NCBI GenBank assembly: GCA_027328825.1
Contig: DAHWTK010000001.1
Span: forward strand, 16,703-80,702
DNA length: 64,000 nt
Direction: 5' to 3'
Source of the DNA: Nitrospirota bacterium
Lineage (GTDB): Bacteria > Nitrospirota > JACRHJ01
The notes beneath the pieces were generated by a model. The model worked only from the letters and a program-made list of their open reading frames with translations, was not told the origin of the DNA and ran no database searches. Position 1 is the first letter of the stretch, and the number at the start of each line of letters is the position of its first letter. Position numbers and translations under genes: made by a program. This document shows positions 18,684 through 56,758 of the stretch, piece by piece.

Positions 18684-19754
18684 TCAAGTCTCAAGCTCGT
18701 CGAGGATGGCGGGAACCGCGCCGGCCAGAGGGACTATCCTGTCAACGCCGCCCAGGGAAACCGCTACCTTTGGCATCCCGTAGACGATGCAGGATTCCTC
18801 GTCCTGGGCGATGGTCTTGCCGCCCGCGTCATGAATGGCCTTTATGCCCATGGCTCCATCGTTTCCCATGCCGGTAAGTATAACACCTATAACTCTGCCA
18901 CGCATTACCTTTGCCGCCGATTCCATCATGACGTCAACCGAGGGGCGATGGATTCTGTCCACCGGAAATTTGGAAAGGTGTACGCAAAGCTCTTCTTCGA
19001 CATGCAAAGTCATATGCAGCCCGGAAGGCGCGATAAGGCATTTCCCCGGCCTTACCAGGTCGCCGTCGAACGCCTCTGACACCTCCAGCCTTGAAAGGCT
19101 GTTCAGCCTCTCCGCCAGAGAGGCGGTGAAGCCTATAGGCATATGCTGCACAACCAGAAACGCCGCATTCAAACCCTCGGGGAGATTGGATAATATCTCC
19201 TGCAGCGCGGGCGGCCCGCCGGTTGAAGCGCCGATTGCCACCACCTTCATTTCCTCAGTGTCGGCTTTGACCGGGACATATGCTTGAGGCAGAAAGACTT
19301 GCGGGCGCGCCGGATGGACTGGCGCCAGTTTCTTTACTATTTTATCCGTATCGACGCCGGCCACCGCCCTGACTTTTGATGTAAGTTCTCCCGCGATGCC
19401 AAGTATATCCATTGCAGTATGGGCGGAGGATTTATCGATTACATCGACCGCGCCCAGGTCAAGAGCCCTGAGAGTCACCTCGCCGCCTTCGGAAGTCAAA
19501 GAAGAAAGCATGAGTACCGGCACAGGGCAATCCGCCATTATCATCCTGAGAGCATCCAGACCGTCCATGCCGGGCATCCGCACGTCGAGGGTAACGACGT
19601 CCGGTTTTAGCATCCGGGTTTTTTTATAGCCTTCCTCGCCGTCCGAGGCCGTGTCGATTACCTCTATCATAGGGTCTGATGATAGCATCCTGTACAGGGC
19701 CTTACGCATGAACACCGAGTCGTCCACTACGAGCACTCTTATCTTTTTGGTCAT
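18684..19754 (-). CDS. cheB: protein-glutamate methylesterase CheB (REC + methylesterase)
   Basis: N-terminal receiver RVLVVDDSVFMR...; C-terminal GASTGGP and HMPIGFT methylesterase motifs. Confidence 0.9.
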   Translation of the reverse strand: MTKKIRVLVVDDSVFMRKALYRMLSSDPMIEVIDTASDGEEGYKKTRMLKPDVVTLDVRMPGMDGLDALRMIMADCPVPVLMLSSLTSEGGEVTLRALDLGAVDVIDKSSAHTAMDILGIAGELTSKVRAVAGVDTDKIVKKLAPVHPARPQVFLPQAYVPVKADTEEMKVVAIGASTGGPPALQEILSNLPEGLNAAFLVVQHMPIGFTASLAERLNSLSRLEVSEAFDGDLVRPGKCLIAPSGLHMTLHVEEELCVHLSKFPVDRIHRPSVDVMMESAAKVMRGRVIGVILTGMGNDGAMGIKAIHDAGGKTIAQDEESCIVYGMPKVAVSLGGVDRIVPLAGAVPAILDELET

Positions 19755-19755
19755 A

Positions 19756-20646
19756 TTACGTCCCGCTTTTTACGTAAATCATAGTGTTCTTGTGGCGCTC
19801 GGTAATGAATATGTCTGTTATCCGCGCAAGCGACTCGGAATGTCCAAGCAGGAGACAGCCGTCGTCGGCAAGCGCATCATAAAAAGATTCCACGGTCCTG
19901 CATATGGCCGAATCTGAAAAATAAATGAAGACGTTCCGGCACAATATTGCGTCCACGTCCTTGAACATTCTGAACAGATGCTGGTCTACCATGTTTCCGT
20001 GCATGAACCTGACACGCTTTCTTATCCGCTCGTCCAGAAGATATTTTTCGCCATCCCGTAAGAAATATCTGTCTGCCGTTTCCCTGCTGGTTGATCTAAG
20101 AGAGTATGCCGTGAATTCGGCGGAATTGGCTTTCCTCAGTATTTTCCCGTCGATGTCCACACCTGTTATATCTATTTTGCACCGGTCGTAAATCTTGGCC
20201 TCTTCCAGCATTATCGCCAGAGTGTACGCCTCTTCGCCGGATGAGCAGCCACACGACAGTATTTTGAAATTTACGATGCCTTCATTTTTTATTTTTTCCT
20301 TAAGCCGCGCGACAAGCAATGAAATCTGGTTTATCTCTCTAAAAAAATAGGTCTCATTGTTGGTGAGTCGCGGGATTAGTTCCGCCGTCTCGTCCCCGCC
20401 GCGCGGATGGAATTTTAAATAATTGTAATATTCCGAGAAAGAGCCTATGTCCAGAACGGTCATACGCGAAGAAAGCCTCATGGCGAGTGTCTGAATTTTC
20501 GCGTCCTCGAAAAAAATTCCGCAATAATCGTGTATATAATCCCTGATAAGCCTGAATTCGAACTCCGACAAGACCTTTTCTTCATAGGCGCTCTCCCCGG
20601 TCGCACCGGGTGCTGCTTCCGTCTCTTTTATTGCGTTAAAATTCAT
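19756..20646 (-). CDS. cheR: chemotaxis protein methyltransferase CheR
   Basis: 296 aa; SAM-MTase fold with ETYFFRE and SCGCSSGEEAYTLA motifs. Confidence 0.85.
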   Translation of the reverse strand: MNFNAIKETEAAPGATGESAYEEKVLSEFEFRLIRDYIHDYCGIFFEDAKIQTLAMRLSSRMTVLDIGSFSEYYNYLKFHPRGGDETAELIPRLTNNETYFFREINQISLLVARLKEKIKNEGIVNFKILSCGCSSGEEAYTLAIMLEEAKIYDRCKIDITGVDIDGKILRKANSAEFTAYSLRSTSRETADRYFLRDGEKYLLDERIRKRVRFMHGNMVDQHLFRMFKDVDAILCRNVFIYFSDSAICRTVESFYDALADDGCLLLGHSESLARITDIFITERHKNTMIYVKSGT

Positions 20647-20693: not shown

Positions 20694-22673
20694 TCAGGCA
20701 TGTGCCGAAACGTTTTCATGCAGCGCCGCAAGAGCCCTGGCAGCTATTTTTCGCACCATGACGTCTTCATCTTTCAGCGCGGACTGCAGCGCTCCGCAAA
20801 CCCCATCGCCTCCTGCCTTGCCGAGGGCCTCGGCCGCCGCCGCCCTGACGCTCCAATGGGTATGCGAGAGAAGCTCCGTCAGCAGTGGAACTGCTTTCTC
20901 GCATCCAATCCGGCCAAGCGCCTGGACTGAAGCCATGAGAATGTCCCTGTCGCCCGCGCAAGCAGTTTCAAGCACGGGCTGGCAGGCCTCTTTTCTTCCC
21001 AGCGCCCCAAGCGCTTCGAGGGCCGCGACCGCCAGTTCGCGCGGTGAATCGTTCAGGATTTCCATGAGCGAGAAAATGGCGATCGGATCCCTTTGTTCCT
21101 TCAAGGCTCCGATGGCATAGAAACAGAACCGTTCATCCCTATCCTTGACAAATTTTATAAGTCTTTGCAGTATATGCGGGTCCCTCACCTTTCCCATGGA
21201 TACAACTGCCTGTTGCGCCACCTTCAGGCTTTTATCGTTGAGGGCCAGGAGCAGGCATGGGACCGCCTTTTCTCCGCCGATGCGTCCGATGGCTTTTACG
21301 GCTACTTCGCGTATCGTTTCCCTGGGGTCGTCGAGGAGAGCTGCGAGCGGTCTTATCGCCTCCTCTGCCTTAACTCTTCCCAGTGTCTCTGCGGCCAGGC
21401 GCATATACCTTACGTCTCCTCCGCTCTGTATGTATGGCAGGAGCCTGGTAAAAACAATCCCGGGCGAGAGATCCGAAAGCGCGGCTACCGCAGCCTCCTG
21501 CACTTCTGGGCTTTCGTCTTCCAATGCGTCCGCCAGATCGCCCACCGCCTCGGACGCCCCTATCCTGCCAAGCGATATAGCCGCTTCCGCGCGTATCATG
21601 TTCATATCGTCATGGATCATCCGTATAAGATACTCCACCCCCGGCCCCGGACCCAGGCTTCCCAGGTAACCGACTAACGCCTGCCGCACGCGGCCTGAGG
21701 GATTTTTCATGTGTTTCCCGGCTTCAGGCAACGCCGCCGTTCCAATTTCGCGAAGGGTCTTCAGCGCCGCTGCGGCCAGATTATCGTCTTCAAGCAGTTC
21801 AAACGCCCTTCCCGAAGCCGCCTCGTATCTGAGAATCCCCGCGGCCATAAGCGCGTTCTCTTTCAATTGATATTCGCCGCCTTCGAGAATTCCAATTAAA
21901 TATGCCCCGAAATTCTGCCCGCCCAGCTCAGTACGAAGCTTCTCCTCTACGGACAAGACCTCCTCGATATGCTCATTATCGCCGGACATTTTTTTGAATA
22001 TTTCCATCAGCGCCTGGAAGGCCGCGTCCCGATGCGTGGAACCCTCCAGGCGAAGAATATTCAAAAGCGGATCAATGGCTTGCGGGCTTCCAATATTTCC
22101 AAGCGCCTGGATTGCTACCGGGGATAGAAGCTCATTGTCCAGATATTTTAAAATGCAGGGAACGGCGCGCTCGGCCTTCAAATTCCCAAGCGCGGCGATA
22201 ACGGGATATGCGCTCCAGAAGTCGCTTTTATCCAATACCTCCATAAGCGGCGTTACTGTCGACGGGTCGCCTATCTTGCCAAGAGCCTCTGCGGCGGCAT
22301 GCGATACATTGGGCTCGTTATCTCTTAGCGCGCTCAGCAGCACCGGGATTGCGGCCTGGCTTCCGATAACCCCCAGCATGACACAGGCAAAATTTCTGAT
22401 TTCCCAGTCCGGGTCGGCGGCGAGGCGCGACAGGGCCGGCATGGCATCTTCGCCGAAACCGATGAAGACCTCCATGGCCGAGTTCCGTCTGTCCGCATCG
22501 CTGTTATCCCTTAAAGCCTCCTCAAGACAGGCTCTGACTTCGGTAAACCCTGCCTGCAAGATCCGCGCCTTCGCCGCCTTCCTCGTCGCAGGGTTTCCGG
22601 TCTTCATCGCAGAGAGGAGGTCGGGGATATCCGCCGCCCCAGAGAGACCCGCATGTCCGGCCCGGTCAGACAT
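20694..22673 (-). CDS. HEAT/PBS-lyase-like repeat protein
   Basis: 659 aa of reiterated ...A(A/V)xALGxIGxxxAVxxLxxLLxDx... HEAT repeats; embedded between two cheR genes. Confidence 0.7.
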   Translation of the reverse strand: MSDRAGHAGLSGAADIPDLLSAMKTGNPATRKAAKARILQAGFTEVRACLEEALRDNSDADRRNSAMEVFIGFGEDAMPALSRLAADPDWEIRNFACVMLGVIGSQAAIPVLLSALRDNEPNVSHAAAEALGKIGDPSTVTPLMEVLDKSDFWSAYPVIAALGNLKAERAVPCILKYLDNELLSPVAIQALGNIGSPQAIDPLLNILRLEGSTHRDAAFQALMEIFKKMSGDNEHIEEVLSVEEKLRTELGGQNFGAYLIGILEGGEYQLKENALMAAGILRYEAASGRAFELLEDDNLAAAALKTLREIGTAALPEAGKHMKNPSGRVRQALVGYLGSLGPGPGVEYLIRMIHDDMNMIRAEAAISLGRIGASEAVGDLADALEDESPEVQEAAVAALSDLSPGIVFTRLLPYIQSGGDVRYMRLAAETLGRVKAEEAIRPLAALLDDPRETIREVAVKAIGRIGGEKAVPCLLLALNDKSLKVAQQAVVSMGKVRDPHILQRLIKFVKDRDERFCFYAIGALKEQRDPIAIFSLMEILNDSPRELAVAALEALGALGRKEACQPVLETACAGDRDILMASVQALGRIGCEKAVPLLTELLSHTHWSVRAAAAEALGKAGGDGVCGALQSALKDEDVMVRKIAARALAALHENVSAHA

Positions 22674-22687
22674 AGACTGTCCATTCT

Positions 22688-23617
22688 TTAAAAAGGCTTG
22701 GCATAATAAACGGCATCTCCTTCGGTAATAACATTAAACTCGTGTTCAAAGAGGTGCAGGGGTTCGGAATCTCCTGTGAAAAGAAATCCGCCGGGCCTCA
22801 GGCATCGGTAAAGGGTGTTTACCAGCCGCGCCTGCGCGGTTCTGTCGAAATAAATCATAACGTTTCTGCAAAAAATAAAGTCGAAATACCCTGTCGCGTC
22901 CAATTTCTTTACCGGCCCGCCCGCCGATCCAAGCTCCATAATGCCGCGCCTTGCCGAGATATCTTTTAAATTTAACTCGTAGAATTTCACTATGCTTGCA
23001 GGAAGCTCCTTTACGGCAAGGCCTCCTTCGCTTCTCTCCATATACCGCGACAGCATATCCGGGGCTATATCTTTCACGGAACTGTTACCGTAAACACCCA
23101 TCCTCGCACGGTCCAGAACTAAACGGTTTATGTCCGTGGCCGTTATCTCGATATCCCATGCCCGCGGGAACTTGAGACTGTCGAGAATCGTAAAGGCGAT
23201 TGAATATGTCTCCTCGCCCGTGGAACAACCCGCGCTCCAGACCCTGAGATACATAAACGGATGCCTCTCGCCCCATTTCCATGGCCGCGTTTCGTCGCCC
23301 CAGGATTTAACGACTTCCCTGTTTTTCTTCTCTATCATCTCGGGGAGTATGCTTTCCTTGAGCGCCCTGAACTGGGATGGATTTCTGAAAAACCGCGTTT
23401 CGTTTACCGTCAATTCTTCAAGCAGACTCTGCATTTCTTCCGGCTCTTCCAGAAGACAATTATAGTAATTCTCGTAATCGGAATGTCCGCCGGCGATAAG
23501 GCGCTCCCGCAGGTGGTCTTCTAAAAAGACTTGCTTGGTTGCCGGGAAGAAAAGGTCGCACCTCTCCCTGACGAGCTTGTTGAATCTGGCAAGTTGTTCC
23601 TGCGTTATGGTCTGCAA
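22688..23617 (-). CDS. cheR: CheR-type MCP methyltransferase (second copy)
   Basis: 309 aa; ETRFFRNP, SAGCSTGEETYSIA motifs. Confidence 0.8.
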   Translation of the reverse strand: MQTITQEQLARFNKLVRERCDLFFPATKQVFLEDHLRERLIAGGHSDYENYYNCLLEEPEEMQSLLEELTVNETRFFRNPSQFRALKESILPEMIEKKNREVVKSWGDETRPWKWGERHPFMYLRVWSAGCSTGEETYSIAFTILDSLKFPRAWDIEITATDINRLVLDRARMGVYGNSSVKDIAPDMLSRYMERSEGGLAVKELPASIVKFYELNLKDISARRGIMELGSAGGPVKKLDATGYFDFIFCRNVMIYFDRTAQARLVNTLYRCLRPGGFLFTGDSEPLHLFEHEFNVITEGDAVYYAKPF

Positions 23618-23618
23618 C

Positions 23619-26147
23619 TTAGCCCCTCGCCGCCGGCTGATACGCTATACCCTGCATGACCTTATAAGCCTCGCAGTGCATGCAGTTGGCAAGCTTTGTA
23701 CGCGCGTCTCCCTGCTGAACGCCTTTGCACCACGTGCTGTCTATAAGCCAGCAGCGCTTCTCCGGGTTCTGGTATGCCGGACATTTAAGCCTGAATTCCG
23801 TGGCGCAATGCAGGACGTCCCAGCAGTTAATATTAATTTCCCTGGTCTTGAATATGCTTATCGCTTTCTGAAGTGACTCCGCCTGATACGTCAGGTTCTC
23901 GGCGGCGGAGCCCATCTGCTTGACCGCGCCCAGGTTCTCCCTCGCAATATCCGAAATATTTTCAACCGCCTTTACGACCAGTTCTCCGCCGCGCTTCTGT
24001 TCAGCGGTCGCATTGGCCACTATTTGGGTCATGGAATTCATGTTTTCGACCGCCTTAATTATCTGAGCGCTTCCAGAAGCCTGCTCTTTTGTAGCAAGAG
24101 AGACTTCGTTCGTGACGCGGTTCATGTCCTCCACGGCCAACCTTATCTGCCTGCCGCCGGTAGATTGCTCTTTCATCGCGCCTGCGAGCTGGCGTGTAAT
24201 GACGTTCATATTCTCCACGGCATTTTTAATCTGATGTGATCCGGACACCTGCTCCTTCACGGCCTTCGTAACTTCATCCGCCGCTTTATTCATATTCTCG
24301 ACCGACTTCAACACCTGCGCCGCGCCAGAGGCCTGCTCGGAAGATGCGTTATTTATTTCGGTCATAAGGCGGTTAGTGGCGCCGACGCTTTCCAGTATTC
24401 TGGAGAGCGATGCCCCGGCTTTGTCCGCAAGTTTCTTGCCTTCCAATGTTTCGGCGGCTCCCGCCTCCGCAGTACTGACAGCCTGGCCGGTTTCTTCCTG
24501 CACCTGCTTTATTACTTCGCCTATTTCCTTGGTGGCCACTACCGACCGCTCTGCCAGTTTGCGTACCTCGTCCGCAACAACGGCGAATCCCCTGCCGGCG
24601 TCGCCTGCCCTGGCGGCTTCTATAGCCGCGTTAAGCGCAAGCAGGTTTGTCTGGTCGGCTATTTCCTCAATCACGCCGACTATCTTGCCGATTTCTTCCG
24701 AGCGCCTGCCAAGACTGCCCATGACCTTGGATGTGGCATTCATAGTCTCGGCAATCCGGTTTATACCCTCTATGGTGTGTTCCACGGCCTCGCTTCCGGC
24801 CTTTGCGGCTTCCGACGCCTTCTGGGATATGCCGTCCGCCTCGGATACATTCATTGCAACCCGCCGTATTGAGGCGGCCATTTCCTCAATTGTCGCCGAT
24901 GTCTCGGATACCGTGCCGGAAAGCCTGGAGGCGTTTTCCCCTACCTGGCCGATGGAGGCGAGCATCTGTTCTATTGTGGCCGAGGTCTCTTCCACCGATG
25001 ATGACAGACCTTCCGAATCCTTCGCAACTCTGTCTATCGAGGCCGTCATCTGTTCTATTGTGGCCGATGTCTCGGATACGGATGAGGCCATCGCCTGGCT
25101 GTTTTTAGCGACCTGCTCTATAGAGGCGACCATCTGGTTTACACTTGCCGAAGTCATATCGACATTTGAGGCGAGTTGGCCAGCGTTATCGGCTACGCTT
25201 TGAATGGATGCGGCCATCTCCTCCATGCTGGATGACGTCTCATCCGCCGCACTTGCCTGTACCGCCGCACCTTTGTTTATCTGCTGGGCGCTTTTCCCTA
25301 CCTGGTCCGCCGCCGAGGCGACCTGCGCCGCGGTCTGATTGGCCGTCTCGACCATTTCGCTCAGGTTGCCTACCATTTTATTGATGGTTTCCCCAAGTAT
25401 GCCAAGCTCATCACTTGTATGCACTCTGATTCGCTGCGTAAGGTCTCCCCCGGCCACTTTGTCGGCGATCCTTATATTTTCCGCCAGCGGTTTCGTTATG
25501 CTCCGGGTTAGATACAGGCTGACGCCGATGCCTATAATAACCGCCACCGCTATGAACATAACTATAATTATGATAACGTGCCTCGCAAAGTCGTTCACCA
25601 CCTGTCCCATCCCATTCATCCGTTTCCTCGATGCGTCCTTCAAATCATTGGCCGCGGCCTCCATCTGATGTATGGGGTCCTTATGCGGGACCATCTCCTC
25701 GTTGCCTTCCTGGGGAGTCTTTATCTTCCCGGCATCCATCATTGCTTTAGCCTTCAAAAAGGATTCTTCATAGGTTGTCGCCTCCTCCTTCATCCTGGAA
25801 AGTGTTTCCCTTTCTTCCGGTAGGTATACGACCTTATCGAGATTTGCCAGCCTTTCGGAAAGCTTGACCTGCCAGCTCTTCCAGGTATTGAAATAATTGC
25901 CATCCGTCTTTTTGTCGTCAATATTCAAAAATACATCCTTCTCGCCCCGCCTCAGTTCGAGGATTTCGGCCCTTGCCGCAGCCGCATTCTCCGCTATGGC
26001 CGCATCGGTCTGAAGCATTACGGTGGTCTTTTTAGAGACGTTGGCAACCCCCCAGTAACCCGCGCCGCCGACTGCGACCATCATAAGCAAAACGATGCCG
26101 AACCCGATTATCAGCCGCGTACCTATATTCATGTCCTTGTTTCTCAT
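23619..26147 (-). CDS. methyl-accepting chemotaxis protein (TM-periplasmic sensor-TM-HAMP-long signalling domain-C-terminal 7-Cys module)
   Basis: 842 aa; two TM segments flanking a roughly 170-aa periplasmic domain, HAMP, long heptad-rich MCP signalling domain, then the CWDVLHC...CMHCEAYK tail. Confidence 0.9.
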
Positions 26148-26169: not shown

Positions 26170-26778
26170 TTACCGCACGCACTCCACGTCTTTCCATATC
26201 ACGTTTTCGAAATCAAGAAGTATAATGAGCCGTCCGTCCATCTTGCCAACTCCATTTATATACCCATTTCCGGCGCCGGATATTTCTTCCGGAGGCGGCT
26301 CCACCACGTCGCCCGGCATCTTGAATACCTGAGATACCCTGTCAACCAGAAGTCCGAGCGCCTTGCCGCCGCCAACCGTTTTGTCGCCGGCCTCGACCAC
26401 TATTATCCTCGAATCCTTCACCACATCCGCATATCCCATGCCTATCCTGGCCTTCAGGTCCATCACGGGGATTATGCGCCCTCTGAGGTTTATAACGCCC
26501 TTGACGTGCGCGGGAGCGTTCGGCACCCACGTCCATCTTCCGGCCCTTATAATCTCCTGTACCCTCACTATTTCCAGCGCATATTCCTCTTGTCCCAGGA
26601 AGAATCCAACCAGGTGAAGCATCTCTCCCGCGGACTTCGCCTGATTATGCCGGCCAGTTTCGCCCTCAGGCCCGTGCGGTGCTTCCGGCGGGGCTCCCGC
26701 CCGCCCCAGTATCTCTTCCGCAAGCCCGGAAGTAGGCAGCGTTATTTTACGATTCGGGTCCGGCACGCCTTCCGTCAT
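26170..26778 (-). CDS. cheW: chemotaxis coupling protein CheW
   Basis: 202 aa CheW-like domain; start overlaps cheA stop (ATGA). Confidence 0.85.
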   Translation of the reverse strand: MTEGVPDPNRKITLPTSGLAEEILGRAGAPPEAPHGPEGETGRHNQAKSAGEMLHLVGFFLGQEEYALEIVRVQEIIRAGRWTWVPNAPAHVKGVINLRGRIIPVMDLKARIGMGYADVVKDSRIIVVEAGDKTVGGGKALGLLVDRVSQVFKMPGDVVEPPPEEISGAGNGYINGVGKMDGRLIILLDFENVIWKDVECVR

Positions 26779-28481
26779 CTCATACCTCCCTTGACAACCT
26801 GTCTATATGCGGCTTTTTCCACGATACCGGCTATGTCCAGTATCAGAACGACTCTTCCGTCTCCCAGGATAGTGGCGCCGGCAATACTCTCGCCTTCCCC
26901 CAGATACTCGTCGAGCGCTTTAATCACTACTTCCTGTCTCCCCATCAGACCGTCCACCATCAGGGCGGCCATCTTATCGTCTCTCCCGACAACTACAGCG
27001 TAGGCACGGTTGGATGGCGCGGCAGTCTCGCGGCCTGCTCCGCCAATCCACCCTGCTTCCGCCGGATCATCCTGTCCGAAAAGCCTGTCAAGCCTGACGA
27101 GCGGAAGAATCCTGTCCCGGAGAAAGATTACCTCGTCTCCGCTGATGGTCTTTATATCCCCGGAGTTGAGCTTGACGCTCTCAACCACGGAAGAAAGCGG
27201 AAGCGCGTAGAGCGTCCGGCCAGATTTCACCATCAGCGCGGATATTATTGCCAGCGTAAGAGGAAGCTTTATTGTGAATGCAGTGCCTGCGTCGGGCCTG
27301 TTTTTAACATCGATACTGCCGCCGAGTTTCGTTACGCCTTTTTTCACCACGTCCAGACCCACGCCTCTGCCGGATACTTCAGTAATTTTTTTTGCAGTTG
27401 AAAATCCAGCTTCAAAGATAAGCTCTGTCGCGCCTTGATCGCTTAATCCCGATACGAATTCAGCCGTATAAATCTTGGACGCCCTGGCCCTAACGGCATT
27501 TATATCTATGCCGGCCCCGTCGTCCGATACCGTAATAATTATATGGTTCCCCTCCTGTGCGGCTGAAAGCGTTATCTCTCCGACGCTCGATTTTTTCTTC
27601 AGGAGCCTTTCCTCCGGTCCTTCTATGCCGTGATCTACCGCGTTTCTTATGAGGTGTATGAGCGGCTCTCCAATCTCGTCGATAACCGTCTTGTCCAGTT
27701 CGGTTTCTCCTCCCTGGAAAACCAGATTTATCTCCTTGCCCCTTTCACGCGAAAGGTCCCTGACCATACGCGGGAAACGCTGGAATACCTGCCGTATCGG
27801 CAGCATCCGCACCTTCATTATGGCTTCCTGGAGCTGGGAGGTTGATTTGAATATCTCCGCCGTCACTTCCGAGAGATCGTAAGCCACCGTCTTGTCCAGC
27901 TTCAGTTCGCTGAAAATTCTGCTTGTCATCGCCAGCCTGGTCCTGTGTATTATCAGTTCGCCCACTAAATTGAGAAGATGGTCCAGGCGCTCGAAATCAA
28001 CCTTGAGTATATTGGATTTATCCGCAATATATCTGAAGCTGTCGCCCCTGGATTTTGGTATTGCCGCCTGAGAGCCGGCCTCGCCTTCCGTTGTTTCGCC
28101 AAGGGCCTTTATCTGTTCGGCAAGGTCTATTTCTGCTTTAGGATTTTCTCTGAGCCGTTCGAGCGCTTCTCTCATGACAGCGACCGAGTCAAACAGTTTC
28201 TGGAGCTTATCGTCGGTCAAGCCGGAGCCGTCTTCGAGCAGCTTTTTGAAAATCCCTTCGATATGGTGAACATACTGCTGAAGAGACTCAAACCCCATCA
28301 TTCCCGAATTCCCTTTAAGGGTATGCAATGACCCCAGCAGATCGGATATAAGCTCGATATCCAGACTGCCCTGGCCCAGATATTTCTCCATCTCGATAAG
28401 CGAGGAGTCGAGCTTGTCTATATGCCCGCTGGCGTCCTCAAAAAACTCATTTATAAGGCCGGAGGTATCGAAATCTTCCAT
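26775..28481 (-). CDS. cheA: chemotaxis histidine kinase CheA (P1-P3-P4-P5; no obvious P2)
   Basis: HPt HTLKGNSGMMGF; HATPase N-box HLIRNAVDHGIE, G-boxes DDGAGID and GRGVGLDVV; C-terminal CheW-like domain. Confidence 0.9.
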   Translation of the reverse strand: MEDFDTSGLINEFFEDASGHIDKLDSSLIEMEKYLGQGSLDIELISDLLGSLHTLKGNSGMMGFESLQQYVHHIEGIFKKLLEDGSGLTDDKLQKLFDSVAVMREALERLRENPKAEIDLAEQIKALGETTEGEAGSQAAIPKSRGDSFRYIADKSNILKVDFERLDHLLNLVGELIIHRTRLAMTSRIFSELKLDKTVAYDLSEVTAEIFKSTSQLQEAIMKVRMLPIRQVFQRFPRMVRDLSRERGKEINLVFQGGETELDKTVIDEIGEPLIHLIRNAVDHGIEGPEERLLKKKSSVGEITLSAAQEGNHIIITVSDDGAGIDINAVRARASKIYTAEFVSGLSDQGATELIFEAGFSTAKKITEVSGRGVGLDVVKKGVTKLGGSIDVKNRPDAGTAFTIKLPLTLAIISALMVKSGRTLYALPLSSVVESVKLNSGDIKTISGDEVIFLRDRILPLVRLDRLFGQDDPAEAGWIGGAGRETAAPSNRAYAVVVGRDDKMAALMVDGLMGRQEVVIKALDEYLGEGESIAGATILGDGRVVLILDIAGIVEKAAYRQVVKGGMR

Positions 28482-28488
28482 CTTGCTC

Positions 28489-28881
28489 CTATACGGCTAC
28501 CGTTTGTATTTCCGAGAATATTCTCTCTATGAGGTTGTGCAGTTCCGCGGGCTGAAAAGGCTTTTTGACATATCCCTTGGCGCCGAGCGTCAGACCGCGG
28601 AGAGTGTCTTCCTCCTTGCCCTCGGTGCTCACTATGATTATGGGCGGGGCCTTGAAGTCCGTCTCTTTGCTTAAGGCCTCAAGGAACTGAAGGCCGTTCA
28701 TTACCGGCATATTTATATCCAGGAGGATAAGCTCTATGCCTTCTTCCTGGGAAAGCTTGTCCAGGGCCTCAAGCCCGTTCATGGCCGCGATAAGCCTGCA
28801 GTCCTTGTAGCGCATGAATACCAGTTTATACATCTGGTGCAGCAGGCTTGAATCGTCCACTATAAGAATTTTCTTGAGCAT
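28489..28881 (-). CDS. cheY: CheY-like response regulator
   Basis: 130-aa single receiver domain (ILIVDDS..., LLDINMP, K near the C-terminus). Confidence 0.85.
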   Translation of the reverse strand: MLKKILIVDDSSLLHQMYKLVFMRYKDCRLIAAMNGLEALDKLSQEEGIELILLDINMPVMNGLQFLEALSKETDFKAPPIIIVSTEGKEEDTLRGLTLGAKGYVKKPFQPAELHNLIERIFSEIQTVAV

Positions 28882-28892
28882 CTTAGTTCCCC

Positions 28893-29291
28893 CTATGCCG
28901 CGGAAGCCGGGCCCGGAACCGGAATCCCAAGCCGGTTCACCATCATAAGCAGGTGGTCAATATCCACCGGTTTTTCATAGTAGTAATAAGCTCCCCGTTT
29001 GAACGCTTCCTCCTTTATTTCCGGAGAACCGTAAGCGGTCATGATTATTACCGCCGTCACCGGGTTCAATCCTTTCACGTATTGCAATAACTCAAGACCT
29101 TCAATGCCGTACATGCCGCTCATCCGGATATCCGCTATCACCAGGTCAAATGAATATCTGGCCAGCGCTTCCTCTGCGGCCTCTATCTTTGAGCAGGTTA
29201 TAACCTCGACTCCGTCAGCCTTCAGGCAATATGAAAGGCTCAGAAGTATGGTAGGTTCATCATCCACGATAAGAATTCTTTTCATCATCAT
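28893..29291 (-). CDS. single-domain response regulator (receiver)
   Basis: 132-aa receiver domain ILIVDDEPT..., ADIRMSG. Confidence 0.8.
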   Translation of the reverse strand: MMMKRILIVDDEPTILLSLSYCLKADGVEVITCSKIEAAEEALARYSFDLVIADIRMSGMYGIEGLELLQYVKGLNPVTAVIIMTAYGSPEIKEEAFKRGAYYYYEKPVDIDHLLMMVNRLGIPVPGPASAA

Positions 29292-29331
29292 GCACCCCTT
29301 GTATGTAAAATCTATTACCGCCCAAGATATA

Positions 29332-29347
29332 GCAACAAGAATGCCAC
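29332..29347 (-). promoter_or_regulatory. sigma-54 promoter TGGCAT-N5-TTGCT about 40 nt upstream of the REC/cheY/cheA operon start
   Basis: minus-strand ggTGGCATtcttgTTGCT, exact -24 GG / -12 GC spacing. Confidence 0.55.
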
Positions 29348-29444: not shown

Positions 29445-30800
29445 CTACAGGAGGTCGTACTTTTTCAGCTTGTTTATCAGCGTGGAGCGGCTTACACCCA
29501 GGAGTCGGGCGGCAAGGCTCTGGTTTCCGCGAGAGAAATCAATAGTCTTTTTTATATGGTCTTTTTCCAGCCTATCGAGCGAACACGGGGCTGAAGGATT
29601 GTTTTGCTGCCCACTCTGGCCCATTTGCGCCTTCTTTTCGAGCAGTTCTCTGGGCAGATGTTCGGGGGTTATGGCCGGTCCTTGCGACAGTATAACGGCG
29701 CGCTCAATAACGTTCCTAAGCTCTCTTATGTTGCCCGGCCACGAGTAGGCGAGCAGGTAGCCTTCGCAATCTTCCGAGATTTCGGTTATATTCTTTTTAA
29801 TCGCCGCGCTTTGCGAGAGAAAATACTTAGCCAGGTCGAGAACGTCGTTCTCCCTTGCCCTGAGCGGCGGCATATGCACAGGCATGACGCATAGCCTGTA
29901 GTAGAGATCTTCCCGGAAGTTTTTCCGGTTATCCGGGTCGGACAGCTCTTTGTTGGTTGCGGCCATTATTCGGACGTCCACCTTTATGTCCCTCGTCCCG
30001 CCTACTCTCCGGAATGTCTTGGTCTCTATTACCCTTAGAAGCTTCGGCTGAAGATTCATCGACAGTTCGGCTATCTCGTCCAGGAATACCGTCCCGCCGT
30101 CGGCTACTTCCAGAAGCCCCTTTTTCATTTCCTTCGCGTCGGTATAAGCGCCTCTTTCGTGCCCGAAAAGCTCGGATTCAAGAAGATGCTCCGACAACGA
30201 TGCACAGTTAATGTCCAGGAAAGGTTTGTCCTTCCTTGCGCTCAAGCCGTGAATGGTCCTTGCCGCAAGCTCCTTGCCGGTGCCGGATTCGCCGGTAATC
30301 ATTACCGTGGTATCCGGGTTTTCCGCGAGCAGTCCTATTATGAGCAGTATCTTATGAATTTCTCTGGAACTTCCTATAATACCAGCATGAGAGCCGCCAT
30401 GCCTCATTTTCAGGACCAGATTTTCCTTCTTGAGACCCTGCGTTTCCAACGCCCGTTCAACCGCTATCTCCAGGGCGTCGATGTCCACCGGTTTGGTAAG
30501 ATAATCATAGGCCCCTTTCCGTATGGCCTGCACAGCATCGGGCAGATTGGCATAGCCCGTGAGCATTATGACCATGATGTCGGGCTGTTCGGCTTTTATC
30601 ATTTCAAGCGCCTGAAGCCCGGTTCCGTCCGGAAGCCTGTTGTCCAGAATGACCAGGTCTGGCCTGAGCGTCCATGCCAGCTTAAGTCCCTCCGCTATAG
30701 TTGCGCCGGCCGATACGGAAAATCCTTTCCCGGTAAACAGGTAGCTTAGGGATTTGCGTATAGTCTCTTCGTCGTCTATTATCAATACCGAATGCGGCAT
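29445..30800 (-). CDS. sigma-54-dependent response regulator (NtrC family: REC-AAA+-HTH)
   Basis: 451 aa; Walker A GESGTGKE, GAYTDA (GAFTGA variant) sigma-54 contact loop, C-terminal Fis-type HTH; start immediately follows the kinase stop. Confidence 0.9.
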   Translation of the reverse strand: MPHSVLIIDDEETIRKSLSYLFTGKGFSVSAGATIAEGLKLAWTLRPDLVILDNRLPDGTGLQALEMIKAEQPDIMVIMLTGYANLPDAVQAIRKGAYDYLTKPVDIDALEIAVERALETQGLKKENLVLKMRHGGSHAGIIGSSREIHKILLIIGLLAENPDTTVMITGESGTGKELAARTIHGLSARKDKPFLDINCASLSEHLLESELFGHERGAYTDAKEMKKGLLEVADGGTVFLDEIAELSMNLQPKLLRVIETKTFRRVGGTRDIKVDVRIMAATNKELSDPDNRKNFREDLYYRLCVMPVHMPPLRARENDVLDLAKYFLSQSAAIKKNITEISEDCEGYLLAYSWPGNIRELRNVIERAVILSQGPAITPEHLPRELLEKKAQMGQSGQQNNPSAPCSLDRLEKDHIKKTIDFSRGNQSLAARLLGVSRSTLINKLKKYDLL

Positions 30801-32540
30801 TTAAGTCCTTTCTGGTGTTACGGGGATATATGGTATGTCTATATTGACGCTCGTGCCCTGGCCCAAGAGGCTTTTTACTGCAATCGTTCCGCCGTGGTCT
30901 TCGATTATCTTGCGGCAGATGGCGAGTCCGATGCCGGTCCCCTTTTCCTTGGTGGTAAAGAAAAGGTCAAATACTTTAGGCAGGTCCGCCTCCGGTATGC
31001 CTGCACCCTGGTCCGATATTGCTATTTTGATTGTATCGTCCGACCGGCTCGCTGAAATTCCCATTCTGCCGCCCTCATGTGAGGCGTCTATTGCGTTTAT
31101 CAGGAGATTCAGGAAAACCTGCCGTATCTGATTAAGATCAATCATAGCCATTTCTATGCCGGAACACTTTCTTACTACATTGAGACTTTTTTCGCTGATT
31201 GCAACAAAATGAAATTCCAGGACGTTTTCTATAAGCGAACATATATCGACGGGCTGTCTATGCAGTTTTACTGTCCGGTTATACAGAAGCATATCTTCTA
31301 CAAGCCGGTTCAGCCTGCTTGTCTCCGAGAGCATGGCCTGCACTAGCGGCCTGATAGGATTTTCGTCACTCGTTTCCCTTGCTATTATCTGTGCGACCGA
31401 GGTAATGCCGAAAAGCGGGTTTCTTATCTCGTGTGCGACGCCGGCCGCGACCTTCCCGACCGCCGCAAACCGCTCCTTCTCACGGAGATCGTCCTGGAGT
31501 TTTTTTATCTCGCTCAAATCCCTGAACACAATAATAAAACCTTCCGGATTCCCGTCCCTGGAAATAAGATGGTTGTTGTTGAAACCTACCGGGACGGCTC
31601 CTCTTGGCGTAAGAATTTCCACCTCGTCGCCTATTATCCGCGGCTTGACCTCCAGCATACCAGCCGCCTCCGGATAAATGAGCGTTATGTCCTTCCCGAT
31701 TATTGCCTCGCGGTCGCACCCCAATATCTCAGATCCGGAGATGTTTATCATTTTTACCTTGCCAGTCAGATCGGTAACGAGGAGCCCTGCGGCCATATTG
31801 AAGATGATACTGTCAAGCAGATGCTCGTTTTTCTTTATTTTCCCCATGTTTTTTATATTGCTCATAAGACTTGCGGCGGAGTTGGCAAAAAGGTTCAGGG
31901 AGTTCAGATCATCCTGGGTTATGGGCTTTTTACTCACATGGTTGTCGGCGCATATAAGGCCGAAATTCCTTCCCATCGTATTCGTCTTGTATATCGGGCA
32001 GTTTCCGCAAATATCCATCCGGGAAAGCATGTTGTCGCTGCCGCGCAGCATTCTACAGCTATTTTCTATAACCCAGCAGGACAGAAGGGGACTGTTTCTT
32101 GACGGGCAATTCTCGTCATTGCATCCAAAATATTTCCAGCATATCAGTTGACGATTTTCCGGATTATATGTTACCAACGGAGCTACGGCTATCTCTGCGC
32201 CGCCGGAGCGCCCTTTTATTATTCCGCAAAGTGGCTTCGATGTTGTAAAAGCCTCGCTCTTGTCGAGTTTGAGTGCTTCGAGCCCGGACACCTCCAACGG
32301 AGTCGACAGTTCTTCGCCTGCCGTGCTATGACATGCAGCGAGACGGCGGGTACCATCGCTATCGTCTATAAGCCACAGACATACCCTGTCGAACCCTATG
32401 GCCTCCGCCACTGCCCAGACTGCTATATTGGCCGCCTCCTGCAAGTCGCCTGAAACTCTTACGCGGTTGGAAAACCAGTTAAGAATAAATAGCTGGTTCA
32501 GTTTTTTTTCGTATAAATCACCTGTCGATTTGAATGTCAA
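30801..32540 (-). CDS. sensor histidine kinase (GAF - 7-Cys module - PAS - HisKA - HATPase), cytoplasmic
   Basis: 579 aa, no TM segments; H-box HEIRNPLFGI; G-boxes; Cys module at aa 134-185; TTG start with GGAG RBS. Confidence 0.85.
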   Translation of the reverse strand: MTFKSTGDLYEKKLNQLFILNWFSNRVRVSGDLQEAANIAVWAVAEAIGFDRVCLWLIDDSDGTRRLAACHSTAGEELSTPLEVSGLEALKLDKSEAFTTSKPLCGIIKGRSGGAEIAVAPLVTYNPENRQLICWKYFGCNDENCPSRNSPLLSCWVIENSCRMLRGSDNMLSRMDICGNCPIYKTNTMGRNFGLICADNHVSKKPITQDDLNSLNLFANSAASLMSNIKNMGKIKKNEHLLDSIIFNMAAGLLVTDLTGKVKMINISGSEILGCDREAIIGKDITLIYPEAAGMLEVKPRIIGDEVEILTPRGAVPVGFNNNHLISRDGNPEGFIIVFRDLSEIKKLQDDLREKERFAAVGKVAAGVAHEIRNPLFGITSVAQIIARETSDENPIRPLVQAMLSETSRLNRLVEDMLLYNRTVKLHRQPVDICSLIENVLEFHFVAISEKSLNVVRKCSGIEMAMIDLNQIRQVFLNLLINAIDASHEGGRMGISASRSDDTIKIAISDQGAGIPEADLPKVFDLFFTTKEKGTGIGLAICRKIIEDHGGTIAVKSLLGQGTSVNIDIPYIPVTPERT

Positions 32541-32639: not shown

Positions 32640-32657
32640 AGCAATAAATATGCCAAT
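32640..32657 (-). promoter_or_regulatory. sigma-54 promoter TGGCAT-N5-TTGCT about 100 nt upstream of the histidine kinase
   Basis: minus-strand atTGGCATatttaTTGCT; identical hexamers and spacing to the 29332 element. Confidence 0.55.
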
Positions 32658-36843: not shown

Positions 36844-38436
36844 TTACTGCCCGAGCATTGCCTTCAAGTCCGCTTCGGGGGTGGTAATCGGCATGATATT
36901 GAATTTCTCCACGAGCGCACCGGCGACGTTCGGCGAAAGAAACGCCGGGAGCGACGGCCCTATGCGGATGTTCTTTATGCCGAGGTTCAGAAGTGTCAGG
37001 AGTATGGACACGGCCTTCTGCTCGTACCACGAAAGCACAAGCGAGAGCGGCAGGTCGTTTACGCCGACTCCGAACGCCTCGGCAAGCGCCACGGCTATCT
37101 TTACCGCGGAGTAGGCGTCGTTGCACTGGCCGATGTCGAGCAGCCTCGGTATCCCGCCTATGTCTCCGAATTCGAGCTTGTTGAAGCGGTATTTCCCGCA
37201 GGCAAGCGTAAGGATTACGGAGTCTCTGGGCGCGGCCATAGCCAGTTCGGTATAGTAATTTCTGCCGGATTTTGCGCCGTCGCAGCCGCCTATCAGGAAG
37301 AAATGCTTTATTTTCCCGGCCTTGACGGCGTCGATTACCTGCCCGGCGACACCCATTACGGTATTCCTGCCGAAACCCGTAAGTATCGTCTGCTCAGGGG
37401 CGTCTGCGGCAAATCCCGGGGCTTTCATGGCCGCATCGATAACGGCTGAGAAGTCCCTGTCCTTTATGTGCGTAACGCCCGGCATGGCGACAAGCCCTGT
37501 CGTGAATATCCGGCTCTGGTAGCTCTCGCGGGGCTTCTGGATGCAGTTTGTCGTCATGACGACGGCGCCGGGGAATGCATCGAATTCCTTAACCTGGTCC
37601 TGCCAGGCCCCGCCGTAGTTTCCCGCAAGGTGCGGGTATTTCTTGAGGCCCGGATATCCGTGCGCGGGGAGCATCTCTCCGTGCGTGTATATGTTTATAC
37701 CTTTGCCCTCGGTCTGTTTCAGGAGTTCTTCAAGGTCTTTCAAGTCATGCCCGGATATGACTATCGCCTTGCCCTTCACAGGCGTTACCCGCACTTTCGC
37801 GGGAACGGGGTGGCCGTATGCGCCCGTATTTGCGCCGTCCAGAAGCTCCATGGCCCGCAGGTTCACCGCCCCTGCCTGCATGGCAAGCTCGAAGAGCCTC
37901 TCCGCAGTCTGTTTTTCTTCGGCCAGATAGCTCATGGCGTCGTGTATGAAGCGAAATACATCCGCGTCCGTCTGCCCGAGGATATAGGCGTGGTCGGCAT
38001 AAGCGGCTATTCCCTTTACGCCGTAGGTGACAAGCTCCTGAAGCGAGGATATGTCCTCGCCGTATTTCTCTCTGCGCGCGGTTATGGACACGGGGGAACC
38101 AGGAGCGAGCGTCTCCGGCTTTCCGCCAGCCGCCTCGCACATGGCCTTCGCCCTTGCCTTCATCTCGCCGGCCTTTTTAAGCCAGGCATCGAGGCGGACG
38201 GGGTCGAAATTTACATTGGTAAGGGTGGAGAAAAGGGCCTCCGCCACGAAAACGTCCACTTCTTCGTCCCTTTTGCCGGCTTTCGCGGCGCGGGAGGCGT
38301 ATTGCGATATGCCTTTGACGGCGGAAACCAATTCATCTTGAAGCAAGGCGGTATTTTCGTCCTTGCCGCATACTCCCTTGACCGTGCAGCCGGTTCCCTT
38401 GGCGGCCTGTTCGCACTGGTAGCAGAACATTCCCAT
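36844..38436 (-). CDS. hcp: hybrid-cluster protein / hydroxylamine reductase
   Basis: N-terminal MFCYQCEQAAKGTGCTVKGVCG cysteine cluster and about 530-aa length typical of Hcp; AAGGAGA RBS. Confidence 0.9.
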   Translation of the reverse strand: MGMFCYQCEQAAKGTGCTVKGVCGKDENTALLQDELVSAVKGISQYASRAAKAGKRDEEVDVFVAEALFSTLTNVNFDPVRLDAWLKKAGEMKARAKAMCEAAGGKPETLAPGSPVSITARREKYGEDISSLQELVTYGVKGIAAYADHAYILGQTDADVFRFIHDAMSYLAEEKQTAERLFELAMQAGAVNLRAMELLDGANTGAYGHPVPAKVRVTPVKGKAIVISGHDLKDLEELLKQTEGKGINIYTHGEMLPAHGYPGLKKYPHLAGNYGGAWQDQVKEFDAFPGAVVMTTNCIQKPRESYQSRIFTTGLVAMPGVTHIKDRDFSAVIDAAMKAPGFAADAPEQTILTGFGRNTVMGVAGQVIDAVKAGKIKHFFLIGGCDGAKSGRNYYTELAMAAPRDSVILTLACGKYRFNKLEFGDIGGIPRLLDIGQCNDAYSAVKIAVALAEAFGVGVNDLPLSLVLSWYEQKAVSILLTLLNLGIKNIRIGPSLPAFLSPNVAGALVEKFNIMPITTPEADLKAMLGQ

Positions 38437-47897: not shown

Positions 47898-48241
47898 GGA
47901 GGTAGTTCCGCGAATGCAAGCTCGTCTCCAGGCTCAACGCCGGCAAGGCTTCCCGCCGCGGCCTCTATGACGCCCTTTGCGCGCGGATAAATCCTCGACA
48001 GCCTGCCCGGCCCTATGCCCCTGACTACGCCGACGGCCTTTCTGTCCCGGTCGTAGAATACCGCGTCTATCGGGAATCTCATCCCGAAGGTGTGTATGGA
48101 GATGCAAGGCGATATTACAAGCGCCTGCCCGTCCGGAAGGCCATTCTTTCCGAGGAGCCCCGTAAGCCGGGCGAGGAAGTTCTCCGCATAAAAAACCTCG
48201 CGGGCTATGCAGGAATTTTTTGTCCGGTCGAATATCATCAT
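47870..48241 (-). CDS. DUF192 domain protein
   Basis: 123 aa; ...ALVISPCISIHTFGMRFPIDAVFYD... matches the DUF192 pattern often found in tad loci. Confidence 0.55.
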   Translation of the reverse strand: MMIFDRTKNSCIAREVFYAENFLARLTGLLGKNGLPDGQALVISPCISIHTFGMRFPIDAVFYDRDRKAVGVVRGIGPGRLSRIYPRAKGVIEAAAGSLAGVEPGDELAFAELPPWPDTQEKG

Positions 48242-49161
48242 TTTTTTACCACCTTCAAGAACGTATCATATATCTGTATCATGGCCGGGCCGAGGATAAT
48301 CACCATGAGCGCCGGGAATATGCAGAACGCGAGCGGGAAGACCATCTTTATGGTCGTCTTCGCAGCCGCCTCCTCGGCAATCTGCCGGCGCTTCGTCCTG
48401 AGAGAATCCGAATGCACCCGGAGCGAACGGGCGAGGCTTGCGCCGAATTTCTCCGTCTGCACCAGTAGCGCCGCGAGCGACCTTATGTCTTCAACGCCGG
48501 TGCGCTCTCCCATATCCCGAAGCGCGTCCATCCGTGGCTTTCCGGCCCTTACCTCCGTGCTCGCGATCCTGAATTCCTGCGCCAGCACATTATCACGAAA
48601 TTCCCCGACTATCCGAACTATGGCGGCATCCAGGCCAAGCCCCGCTTCAACGCAGACCGTGAGAAGGTCGAGCACGTCCGGCAGCGCGTGGAATATTTCC
48701 GTCTGTCTCCGTTTTATCTTTTCGTTAAGCCATACGTTCGGAGCGAGGTAGACCAGAAACGCCGCCAATCCCGCCAGGACCATCGACGCAAAAAACTTGT
48801 GCAAGTGCGAAAGCGCAAACAGATAAAAGAGCAGAAAGGCCCCGGTTGCGGCAATAACCTTCACACCGGCGAATATCAGAATCGACGAATTTTTCCTGTA
48901 TCCCGCCCTTATCAGCATCACCTTGAGCTTCCTGCGGCTTTTCTCCGGCATGGGAACCTTTTCGCCCGCCATCATTACCGCTTTTTCCAGCGCCTTATCC
49001 ATCCCCTGATTCCTTTGCGCGGTCGGTTTCTTTTTCTTCTGCATTTCCCGAAGCCTGACGCCAACCTCGCCCGGCCTGGAAAAAAACAGCAGAAAAACCG
49101 CCAGCGCAACCAGGCAGACGGCAAGGAATACCGCCGCGGCTATAACCCCCGCAGTCGTCAT
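48238..49161 (-). CDS. tadC: Flp pilus assembly protein TadC (GspF-like membrane platform)
   Basis: 307 aa, N-terminal TM, T2SSF-type domain. Confidence 0.75.
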   Translation of the reverse strand: MTTAGVIAAAVFLAVCLVALAVFLLFFSRPGEVGVRLREMQKKKKPTAQRNQGMDKALEKAVMMAGEKVPMPEKSRRKLKVMLIRAGYRKNSSILIFAGVKVIAATGAFLLFYLFALSHLHKFFASMVLAGLAAFLVYLAPNVWLNEKIKRRQTEIFHALPDVLDLLTVCVEAGLGLDAAIVRIVGEFRDNVLAQEFRIASTEVRAGKPRMDALRDMGERTGVEDIRSLAALLVQTEKFGASLARSLRVHSDSLRTKRRQIAEEAAAKTTIKMVFPLAFCIFPALMVIILGPAMIQIYDTFLKVVKK

Positions 49162-49169
49162 TTCCGCAC

Positions 49170-50141
49170 CTATATTTGGATGTTTATAATTTTTCTTATC
49201 ATCAGAAATCCCGCGACCTGCAAGGCGAACGCCCCGATTATCATCGCCAGTCCCGATTTTGTATCGAAAAGCAATTTGATATATTTCGAATTCAGGACGC
49301 TAAGTATAATGAGCATGACTATCGGCAGGGCGGCGAGAACATAGCCGGACAGCCTTCCCTGGGCCGTATATACCCTTAGCTGCCTTAGAACCTTGAACCT
49401 GTCCCTTATCGTCATCGCAAGCTTTTCGAGTATCTCGGCCAGGTTTCCGCCGGTCTCCCTCTGCACGATTACAGCCGTGATGAAGAACCTCAAGTCGATA
49501 GACCGGGCGCTTCTCGTCATGTGCTCCAGCGCCTCCGGAAGGGGTATTCCGTAGCCCTGTTCTTCATACGCCAGCCTGAATATCCTCGATATCGGATCCG
49601 CCATTTCCTCCGATATTACGTAGAGTGCGCTTGTAAAGGAATGGCCTGCGCGGAGCGATCTCGCGGCCATATCCAGCGCCTCCGGGAGTTGATCGTCGAA
49701 TTTTTTGAACCGCGCGGCACGCTTCCTGAAGAGATACATAAACGGAATTGCGGCCAGGCCGGGCGCGAGCAGAAACGGGAGCATGGGGTTTCTGGCCGCT
49801 TTCAGACCAATAAGCGCACCCGCGGCGCCCAGGGCAAGGACCATAAGGGCGAAAGGCCCGACCCTGATCTTTACGCCGGCCTGCTCTATTAGAAGCTCAA
49901 GCCTTTGCGCGAGGGGCAGGTTATGCAGGAACCTGTGCAGGGCGGGTATCTGGCTCATGAGTTCGTCCTTCAGAAGCGTCGGCATTTCCTCTTCCGAAGG
50001 CTTCCTCATTGCTATGGACTGAAGGCGCTTTTTAATGTCGGTTTTCGCCTTCGCCTCCGGGCCCGACGTAAGGAGATAGCCCGCCGCAAAGAAGGCAAGA
50101 AACGCCGCGAACGCTGTAAACGCTATCAGGGCTGGTCCCAT
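49170..50141 (-). CDS. tadB: Flp pilus assembly protein TadB (GspF-like)
   Basis: 323 aa, T2SSF-type domain, TM helices at both ends. Confidence 0.75.
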   Translation of the reverse strand: MGPALIAFTAFAAFLAFFAAGYLLTSGPEAKAKTDIKKRLQSIAMRKPSEEEMPTLLKDELMSQIPALHRFLHNLPLAQRLELLIEQAGVKIRVGPFALMVLALGAAGALIGLKAARNPMLPFLLAPGLAAIPFMYLFRKRAARFKKFDDQLPEALDMAARSLRAGHSFTSALYVISEEMADPISRIFRLAYEEQGYGIPLPEALEHMTRSARSIDLRFFITAVIVQRETGGNLAEILEKLAMTIRDRFKVLRQLRVYTAQGRLSGYVLAALPIVMLIILSVLNSKYIKLLFDTKSGLAMIIGAFALQVAGFLMIRKIINIQI

Positions 50142-50151
50142 ACGGCCTCCG

Positions 50152-51489: not shown

Positions 51490-51505
51490 GGCGCCTCCGC
51501 AGAAT

Positions 51506-54138: not shown

Positions 54139-54139
54139 T

Positions 54140-55834: not shown

Positions 55835-55860
55835 TTAAAACGCCTCCTTTTTTATAACTT

Positions 55861-56742: not shown

Positions 56743-56758
56743 CTCTATTCCTCCTTTT

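Follow-up and report, generated by a model that had tools for sequence, protein, structure and literature searches.

The closest described systems are receptors that carry an additional cytoplasmic sensor. The CZB domain (PF13682), known from TlpD and DgcZ, is a cytoplasmic metal-binding accessory sensor that often lies at the C-terminus of methyl-accepting chemotaxis proteins (MCPs) and is also found on diguanylate cyclases. DcrH of Desulfovibrio vulgaris is the MCP of an anaerobe, with a metal sensor (hemerythrin) after the signalling domain, and has been proposed to sense O2. The position after the C-terminal helix of the MCP signalling bundle is used by CZB, by PilZ and by the DcrH hemerythrin. 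To our knowledge, no chemoreceptor with an iron-sulphur (Fe-S) input has been characterised. The locus described here lies on a stretch of 64,000 nucleotides from a Nitrospirota bacterium (contig DAHWTK010000001.1, positions 16,703 to 80,702; hereafter the window). It encodes an MCP and a sensor histidine kinase (HK) that each contain a copy of the same seven-cysteine module, the two-CW domain, which may be a metal-centred input module for both proteins. The two genes and the two copies are:

23619-26147, minus strand: MCP, 842 amino acids (aa) (open reading frame (ORF); Pfam 4HB_MCP_1, HAMP, MCPsignal), laid out as 4HB_MCP_1 periplasmic sensor, two transmembrane (TM) segments, HAMP, long MCPsignal and C-terminal two-CW domain
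23661-23825, minus strand: two-CW domain of the MCP, aa 775-829 (hidden Markov model (HMM) envelope aa 772-833, 23649-23834)
30801-32540, minus strand: soluble sensor HK, 579 aa, with GAF (two-CW nested in it), PAS, HisKA and HATPase_c domains (ORF, Pfam)
31986-32141, minus strand: divergent two-CW domain of the HK, aa 134-185, CWKYFGCNDENCPSRNSPLLSCWVIENSCRMLRGSDNMLSRMDICGNCPIYK

The MCP module is about 55 residues long, and all seven Cys of the 842-aa receptor fall within aa 775-825, the other 835 residues being Cys-free. The Cys spacing of the two copies is C-x5-C-x4/7-C-x9-C-x6/7-C-x14/15-C-x2-C. Compared with the whole HK by BLASTP with composition-based statistics, the MCP module aligns to precisely aa 134-185 (E=9e-8, 29% identity). 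An independent family HMM, built from 150+ homologues with both window copies and the HK orthologue left out, gives the HK segment 42.6 bits and the MCP segment 76.9 bits. These sequence comparisons confirm the two segments as homologous copies of one module. A six-frame regular-expression search across the window found no third copy.

A shared module had been described in the original prediction, made from the window's letters, and its coordinates agree with the ORF listing, which has both module-bearing genes on the minus strand. The MCP copy had been placed at the extreme C-terminus; since 13 residues follow it, it is near the C-terminus instead. The proposed cysteine pattern is right in its overall register and off by one in two spacers, which actually read C-P-x8-C and C-W-x(5-6)-C. 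Both copies had also been called cytoplasmic, and this stands: the only TM segments of the MCP are at aa 6-37 and 182-218, ahead of HAMP and the signalling domain, and no hydrophobic or TM segment was seen in the HK, so both modules face the cytoplasm. The cytoplasmic stretch from HAMP to the two-CW domain (aa 264-774, about 510 aa) is unusually long and contains reiterated ETSATIEQM-like segments. An identical MCP protein is present on ENA metagenome contig ERZ27233565 k141_1670427.

Both copies match NCBIfam NF045718 ("two_CW_domain"), with which they have two Cys-Trp (CW) dipeptides and seven Cys in common register. The window copies are a shorter variant, covering the 80 positions of the NF045718 profile with about 58 residues. 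The curated cutoff of this family is 35 bits. The MCP copy passes it as part of the whole protein (37.8 bits) and as the excised module (40.0 and 43.5 bits). The HK copy scores 22.7 bits (E=9.8e-5), and automatic annotation misses it because this lies below the curated cutoff. By the independent HMM and BLASTP it is a divergent member of the two-CW family despite the sub-threshold score. All 69 of the 69 homologous domains sampled match NF045718, and the two window copies can be aligned, Cys for Cys, with 159 further domain sequences of the family. The module is a member of a catalogued family rather than a new domain, and its name carries no function that we could find. The original statement that it is not a named domain is thus wrong. 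A match to an already characterised domain had been set out as the result that would speak against the idea; the family found has a name, and neither a characterised function nor a structure was found for it.

Pfam gave no match at E<=1 for either module, and a PDB sequence search gave no match to the two-CW domain. CZB (PF13682) is rejected as an identity, with no Pfam match at E<=1 and no conserved His column in the module. A CxxCH haem site is rejected as well (no Pfam match at E<=1), so both exclusions made in the original prediction hold. The 4Fe-4S ferredoxin family Fer4 has no Pfam match at E<=1, its CxxCxxCxxxCP spacing is absent, and no PDB fold match was obtained. The eukaryotic zf-CW domain (PF07496) is unrelated, with no Pfam match and no structural match.

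The two-CW family is large. An exhaustive HMMER profile search of 1.84 billion cluster representatives (clusters at 50% identity) returned 681 representatives at E<=1e-3, 46 of them at E<=1e-10. The cluster names carry little information, such as 'hypothetical' or 'PAS domain S-box protein'. In the best 150 proteins of the 681, which were picked with a Cys-containing profile and therefore carry a selection bias, the seven Cys are conserved at 98-100%, the two Trp at 96-100% and the Pro after Cys3 at 96%. Further conserved positions are a Thr (97%), a Lys (96%) and the two residues of a Gln-Gly pair (89% and 88%). The family-wide conservation of the seven Cys, both CW and the CP agrees with what had been proposed from the two window copies. 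In a few copies one Cys is missing, mostly Cys5 (P0062, P0084, P0130), a hint that Cys5 may be the ligand that the domain can best do without. Tandem two-CW domains, with two or three copies per protein, occur in P0007, P0023, P0027, P0029, P0049, P0062, P0080 and P0119.

The 159 significant domains in these 150 proteins are N-terminal in 61 cases, C-terminal in 38, internal in 36 and short stand-alone proteins in 24. MCPs make up 31 of the 35 proteins of the C-terminal class. The N-terminal class precedes PAS-HisKA-HATPase kinases, GGDEF, HD-GYP, one sigma-54 AAA+ activator and one GerE regulator, and the internal class includes MCPs, HKs, GGDEF, HD and one CheW protein. The expected recurrence at MCP C-termini and in kinases is therefore borne out. 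Relative to the kinase core, the domain is N-terminal in 33 cases and C-terminal in none, and in 10 MCPs it is placed in line, with the membrane region on one side and the signalling domain on the other. These two placements suggest that two-CW is a promiscuous input module. One two-CW MCP also carries a CZB domain.

The HK copy is nested in a GAF domain, the two parts of which are:

32142-32447, minus strand: HK GAF domain, portion N-terminal to the two-CW insert, aa 32-133 (Pfam)
31854-31985, minus strand: HK GAF domain, portion C-terminal to the two-CW insert, approximately aa 186-229 (Pfam deletion test)

With the insert present, the Pfam GAF model matches at profile positions 1-54 only. 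Deleting aa 134-185 in silico extends the match to profile positions 1-130 of 133, at 28.2 bits (gathering score 22.4). The two-CW domain is taken to be inserted into the GAF domain, because an end-to-end GAF match is obtained once aa 134-185 are removed. The insertion point is apparently the beta4-beta5 hairpin, as read from '...VAPLV...[insert]...FGLICAD...' against the typical GAF motif. An AlphaFold2 (AF2) model of HK aa 1-240, made with a two-sequence alignment, had a mean predicted local distance difference test score (pLDDT) of 31.9 and was discarded, so that the nesting rests on the Pfam deletion test. The HK copy differs from NF045718 in being GAF-nested, in scoring below the cutoff and in being devoid of the family's GT, QG and K.

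The host range was surveyed with MCP-subfamily patterns in one genome per GTDB species, which gave 174 relatives, of which the best 80 are described. These belong to Nitrospirota/Thermodesulfovibrionales, Bacillota (Thermincola, Syntrophothermus, Lithacetigena), Ca. Methanoperedens and Desulfobacterota, and the closest is a 'Nitrospirae bacterium' metagenome-assembled genome with 96% identity, so that the window probably derives from a member of Thermodesulfovibrionia. The hosts found in this pattern-biased sample are uniformly anaerobic. A gene for a hybrid-cluster protein (Prismane family, E=1e-170) lies in the window at 36844-38436 on the minus strand, which fits an anaerobic host.

Two-CW MCPs and two-CW HKs are paired beyond the window as well. 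An orthologous locus (L082) has the same gene order, and its HK (P0005) is 85% identical to the window HK with every Cys kept. The contig index contains no exact copy of the window HK, and P0005 was used in its place. At least 23 other, more distant Nitrospirota loci also have the pairing and keep the che gene set. In these 23 loci the two-CW HK lies downstream on the opposite strand, and is built of sensor, HAMP, two-CW, GAF, HisKA and HATPase domains. In the HK of one of them (L016, 11339-14044) the two-CW domain stands ahead of an intact GAF domain, unlike in the window HK. Since both the MCP and the HK keep two-CW through these changes of gene order, strand and HK architecture, the two proteins are probably functionally coupled. 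About 17 of the 23 loci have, in addition, a stand-alone two-CW ORF of 75-95 aa directly upstream of the two-CW MCP (L016 5376-5645; equivalents in L007-L009, L013-L019, L022, L023, L025, L027, L030, L032 and L033). The window has no such ORF. These small proteins may act as a partner, a decoy or a redox relay. In Desulfobacterota, N-terminal two-CW HKs stand alone in their loci. Archaeal loci of Ca. Methanoperedens and relatives (L034, L048, L051, L053) have MCP arrays with interleaved CheW genes and no two-CW kinase; two or three MCPs in each carry a C-terminal two-CW domain, which is thus used by archaeal chemoreceptors as well.

The AF2 model of the MCP module has a pLDDT of 89.7, a predicted template-modelling score (pTM) of 0.76 and few secondary-structure elements. 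A confident model with so few elements fits a metal-stabilised mini-domain. No structural counterpart of the model was found in the PDB, from which the predicted two-CW fold appears to be absent.

We propose that two-CW is a signal-input module built around a Cys-ligated metal centre, in which a redox- or O2-labile Fe-S cluster is favoured over Zn, and we put the probability of this at roughly 0.5. Fe-S is favoured because the module has a single CxxC, a conserved Cys-Pro and no conserved His, because no Zn-finger model or fold matches it, and because its hosts are anaerobes. A single CxxC with a conserved C-P fits Fe-S ligation better than it fits classical Zn knuckles. By analogy, the seven ligands could be divided 3+4 as in 7Fe ferredoxins, or could be joined by one non-Cys ligand.

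The genes around the MCP and the HK form a chemosensory operon that ends upstream at a tRNA-Leu gene. From the HK onwards, the order is HK, NtrC-like regulator, receiver-only response regulator (RR), CheY, CheA, CheW, MCP, CheR, HEAT-repeat protein, CheR and CheB. Besides the MCP and the HK, the operon and its two promoter-like sites comprise:

32640-32655, minus strand: promoter-like site of the sigma-54 (-24/-12) type, TGGCATATTTATTGCT; the HK start lies about 100 nt downstream
29445-30800, minus strand: NtrC-like RR with receiver, sigma-54 AAA+ and HTH_8 domains (Pfam)
29331-29346, minus strand: second promoter-like site for sigma-54, TGGCATTCTTGTTGCT; the RR/CheY/CheA/CheW/MCP genes follow about 40 nt downstream
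28893-29291, minus strand: receiver-only RR (Pfam)
28489-28881, minus strand: CheY-like RR (Pfam)
26775-28481, minus strand: CheA (Pfam)
26170-26778, minus strand: CheW (Pfam)
22688-23617, minus strand: CheR, the first of two (Pfam)
20694-22673, minus strand: HEAT-repeat protein, 659 aa (Pfam)
19756-20646, minus strand: second CheR (Pfam)
18684-19754, minus strand: CheB (Pfam)

CheA, CheW, MCP, CheR, CheB and a CheY-like RR thus lie together as a Che gene cluster, along with the HEAT-repeat protein and the second CheR. The two CheR genes flank the HEAT-repeat gene, and the HEAT-CheR-CheB set is found again in all related Nitrospirota loci. The start of the NtrC-like regulator directly adjoins the stop codon of the HK, and its receiver, sigma-54 AAA+ and HTH_8 domains give it an NtrC-type architecture. 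No flagellar genes were detected within the 64-kb window. A Tad/Flp pilus cluster lies at 48238-56841 on the minus strand, with RcpC/CpaB, secretin, TadE/G-like, TadA ATPase and two TadB/C-like T2SSF proteins. Given the lack of flagellar genes and the presence of the Tad cluster in the window, the Che pathway may control something other than swimming.

The motif TGGCAC-N5-TTGCW, scanned with up to one mismatch, has only two matches in the 64-kb window, both on the correct strand and in the two intergenic gaps of the operon. The placement is above chance, each site having about 580 of 128,000 strand positions available by our own estimate. The orthologous locus has a site at the same position as the second one (29331-29346; L082, 13199-13214), and a perfect site lies ahead of the che genes in one of the more distant loci (L016, 2397-2412). 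The sites suggest that the che operon is sigma-54 dependent and is auto-regulated by the adjacent NtrC-like regulator.

A two-tier circuit would follow from this arrangement. In the MCP, the module sits after the C-terminal helix of the signalling bundle, where the state of its metal centre could modulate the control of CheA alongside the periplasmic 4HB sensor. In the HK, the module in the GAF loop, upstream of PAS-HisKA, may gate autophosphorylation. The HK would then phosphorylate the adjacent NtrC-like activator, which in turn would fire the sigma-54 promoters that precede the HK operon and the che genes. One intracellular cue could in this way first switch on the chemosensory pathway and then adjust it via the two-CW domain of the MCP. 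In its full form, the proposal is that two-CW is an O2- or redox-labile Fe-S sensor of a fold outside the PDB, an anaerobe-specific input for chemoreceptors, HKs, c-di-GMP enzymes and sigma-54 activators, the first Fe-S input of a chemoreceptor, and in this locus the basis of a two-tier circuit. That full form is offered tentatively, and we lean somewhat against all of it being right. The original prediction had one cue acting through two pathways, biasing swimming through the MCP and switching sigma-54-dependent transcription through the HK. The MCP/HK pairing in the 23 loci and the sigma-54-like sites in both gaps give the common cue comparative support; the swimming part is unproven, in a window without flagellar genes but with a Tad cluster.

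Several points weigh against the Fe-S sensor and the circuit built on it. We infer the metal identity, the cue and the regulatory wiring, and metal binding itself from Cys invariance only, a conservation measured on sequences selected for their Cys. Seven ligands match no single canonical site, and arrangements of 4+3 or 7+1 are possible for Fe-S and Zn alike. The HK copy retains the seven Cys, both CW and the CP and has lost the family's GT, QG and K; without several of the conserved non-Cys residues it could be degenerate or differently tuned. The host scan used patterns tuned to the MCP subfamily, so that its taxonomic sample is biased. The loci of Methanoperedens and Bacillota have two-CW MCPs without a two-CW HK. 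Both sigma-54-like sites carry one mismatch, and their window-wide count of two, against a chance mean of 1.23, is by number alone not above chance. Literature searches found no paper, characterised function, cofactor or experiment for the two-CW family.

The alternative that survives best is a zinc module, either a binuclear Zn2Cys7 site or a ZnCys4 site with three free or disulfide-bonded thiols. It could serve in structural dimerisation or capping, or act as a zinc-thiolate redox switch as in CZB/TlpD, RsrA and Hsp33. A small, Cys-rich domain with little secondary structure and one CxxC knuckle is a typical zinc mini-domain, AF2 folds the module confidently without a cofactor, and CZB is a precedent for a C-terminal zinc domain on MCPs, present even in one of the two-CW MCPs. 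We nevertheless consider zinc unlikely. There are two knuckles in classical Zn ribbons and treble clefs, and two-CW has one CxxC pair only, with no conserved His, no Pfam zinc-finger match at E<=1 and no structural match to a Zn domain in the PDB. Restriction to strict anaerobes is not expected of a structural Zn site, and a purely structural role leaves the promiscuous input-domain architectures unexplained.

The stand-alone ORFs raise a second alternative, in which two-CW is a docking module that binds itself, possibly through a bridging metal. The HK and the stand-alone two-CW proteins would then be recruited to the MCP C-terminus, and the array and the sigma-54 system would be physically coupled. 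There are several two-CW proteins per locus, with stand-alone ORFs in about 17 Nitrospirota loci as well as tandem repeats, and in enteric receptors the C-terminal tail of the MCP tethers CheR and CheB. This explanation is improbable in view of the many lone two-CW proteins, such as the Desulfobacterota HKs and the Methanoperedens and Bacillota MCPs that have no partner HK, and the in-line position in 10 MCPs and the constant place N-terminal to kinase cores favour an input domain over a tether. Chance compositional similarity of two Cys-rich stretches could point to the low identity (29%) and to the sub-threshold NF045718 score of the HK copy. It has practically nothing left to recommend it, being refuted by the BLASTP E=9e-8, the HMM score of 42.6 bits, the HK orthologue with all its Cys and the 681 in-register clusters.

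In anaerobes, the two-CW family, with its 681 clusters, is attached to all major classes of signalling output, bacterial as well as archaeal. The locus is a compact test system: one receptor and one kinase share the module, a sigma-54 activator is encoded next to them, and there are candidate promoters for it to act on. If two-CW is indeed an Fe-S or thiol sensor, it would explain how methane-oxidising archaea and the reducers of sulfate and of metals couple intracellular redox or O2 stress to behaviour and transcription, and the inputs of chemoreceptors would gain a cofactor class new to them.

Among the known systems, zf-CW (PF07496) resembles two-CW in name and in being a Cys/Trp mini-domain of about 50-60 aa, and differs in having four Cys and one Zn and in reading histone tails. 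The clostridial 2x[4Fe-4S] and 7Fe ferredoxins are alike in size (about 55 aa), in their 7-8 Cys and in Cys-Pro, and the 7Fe type has a 3+4 division of its Cys, but two-CW has neither the CxxCxxCxxxCP spacing nor a Fer4 match at E<=1 nor a ferredoxin fold match. CZB, at about 70-120 aa, forms a bundle of four helices that holds zinc with 3His/1Cys, whereas two-CW has seven Cys, no conserved His and no fold match in the PDB. The hemerythrin domain of DcrH is a di-iron four-helix bundle with His and carboxylate ligands, and has no relation to two-CW in sequence or fold. FNR, NreB, WhiB-like proteins, NsrR and AirS rely on 3-4 Cys and have different folds (a CRP N-terminal extension, PAS, Wbl and Rrf2), and no homology to two-CW was detected. 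They resemble the role proposed for two-CW in that Cys-ligated clusters labile to O2, NO or redox switch their signalling output, and two of them, NreB and AirS, are themselves HKs.

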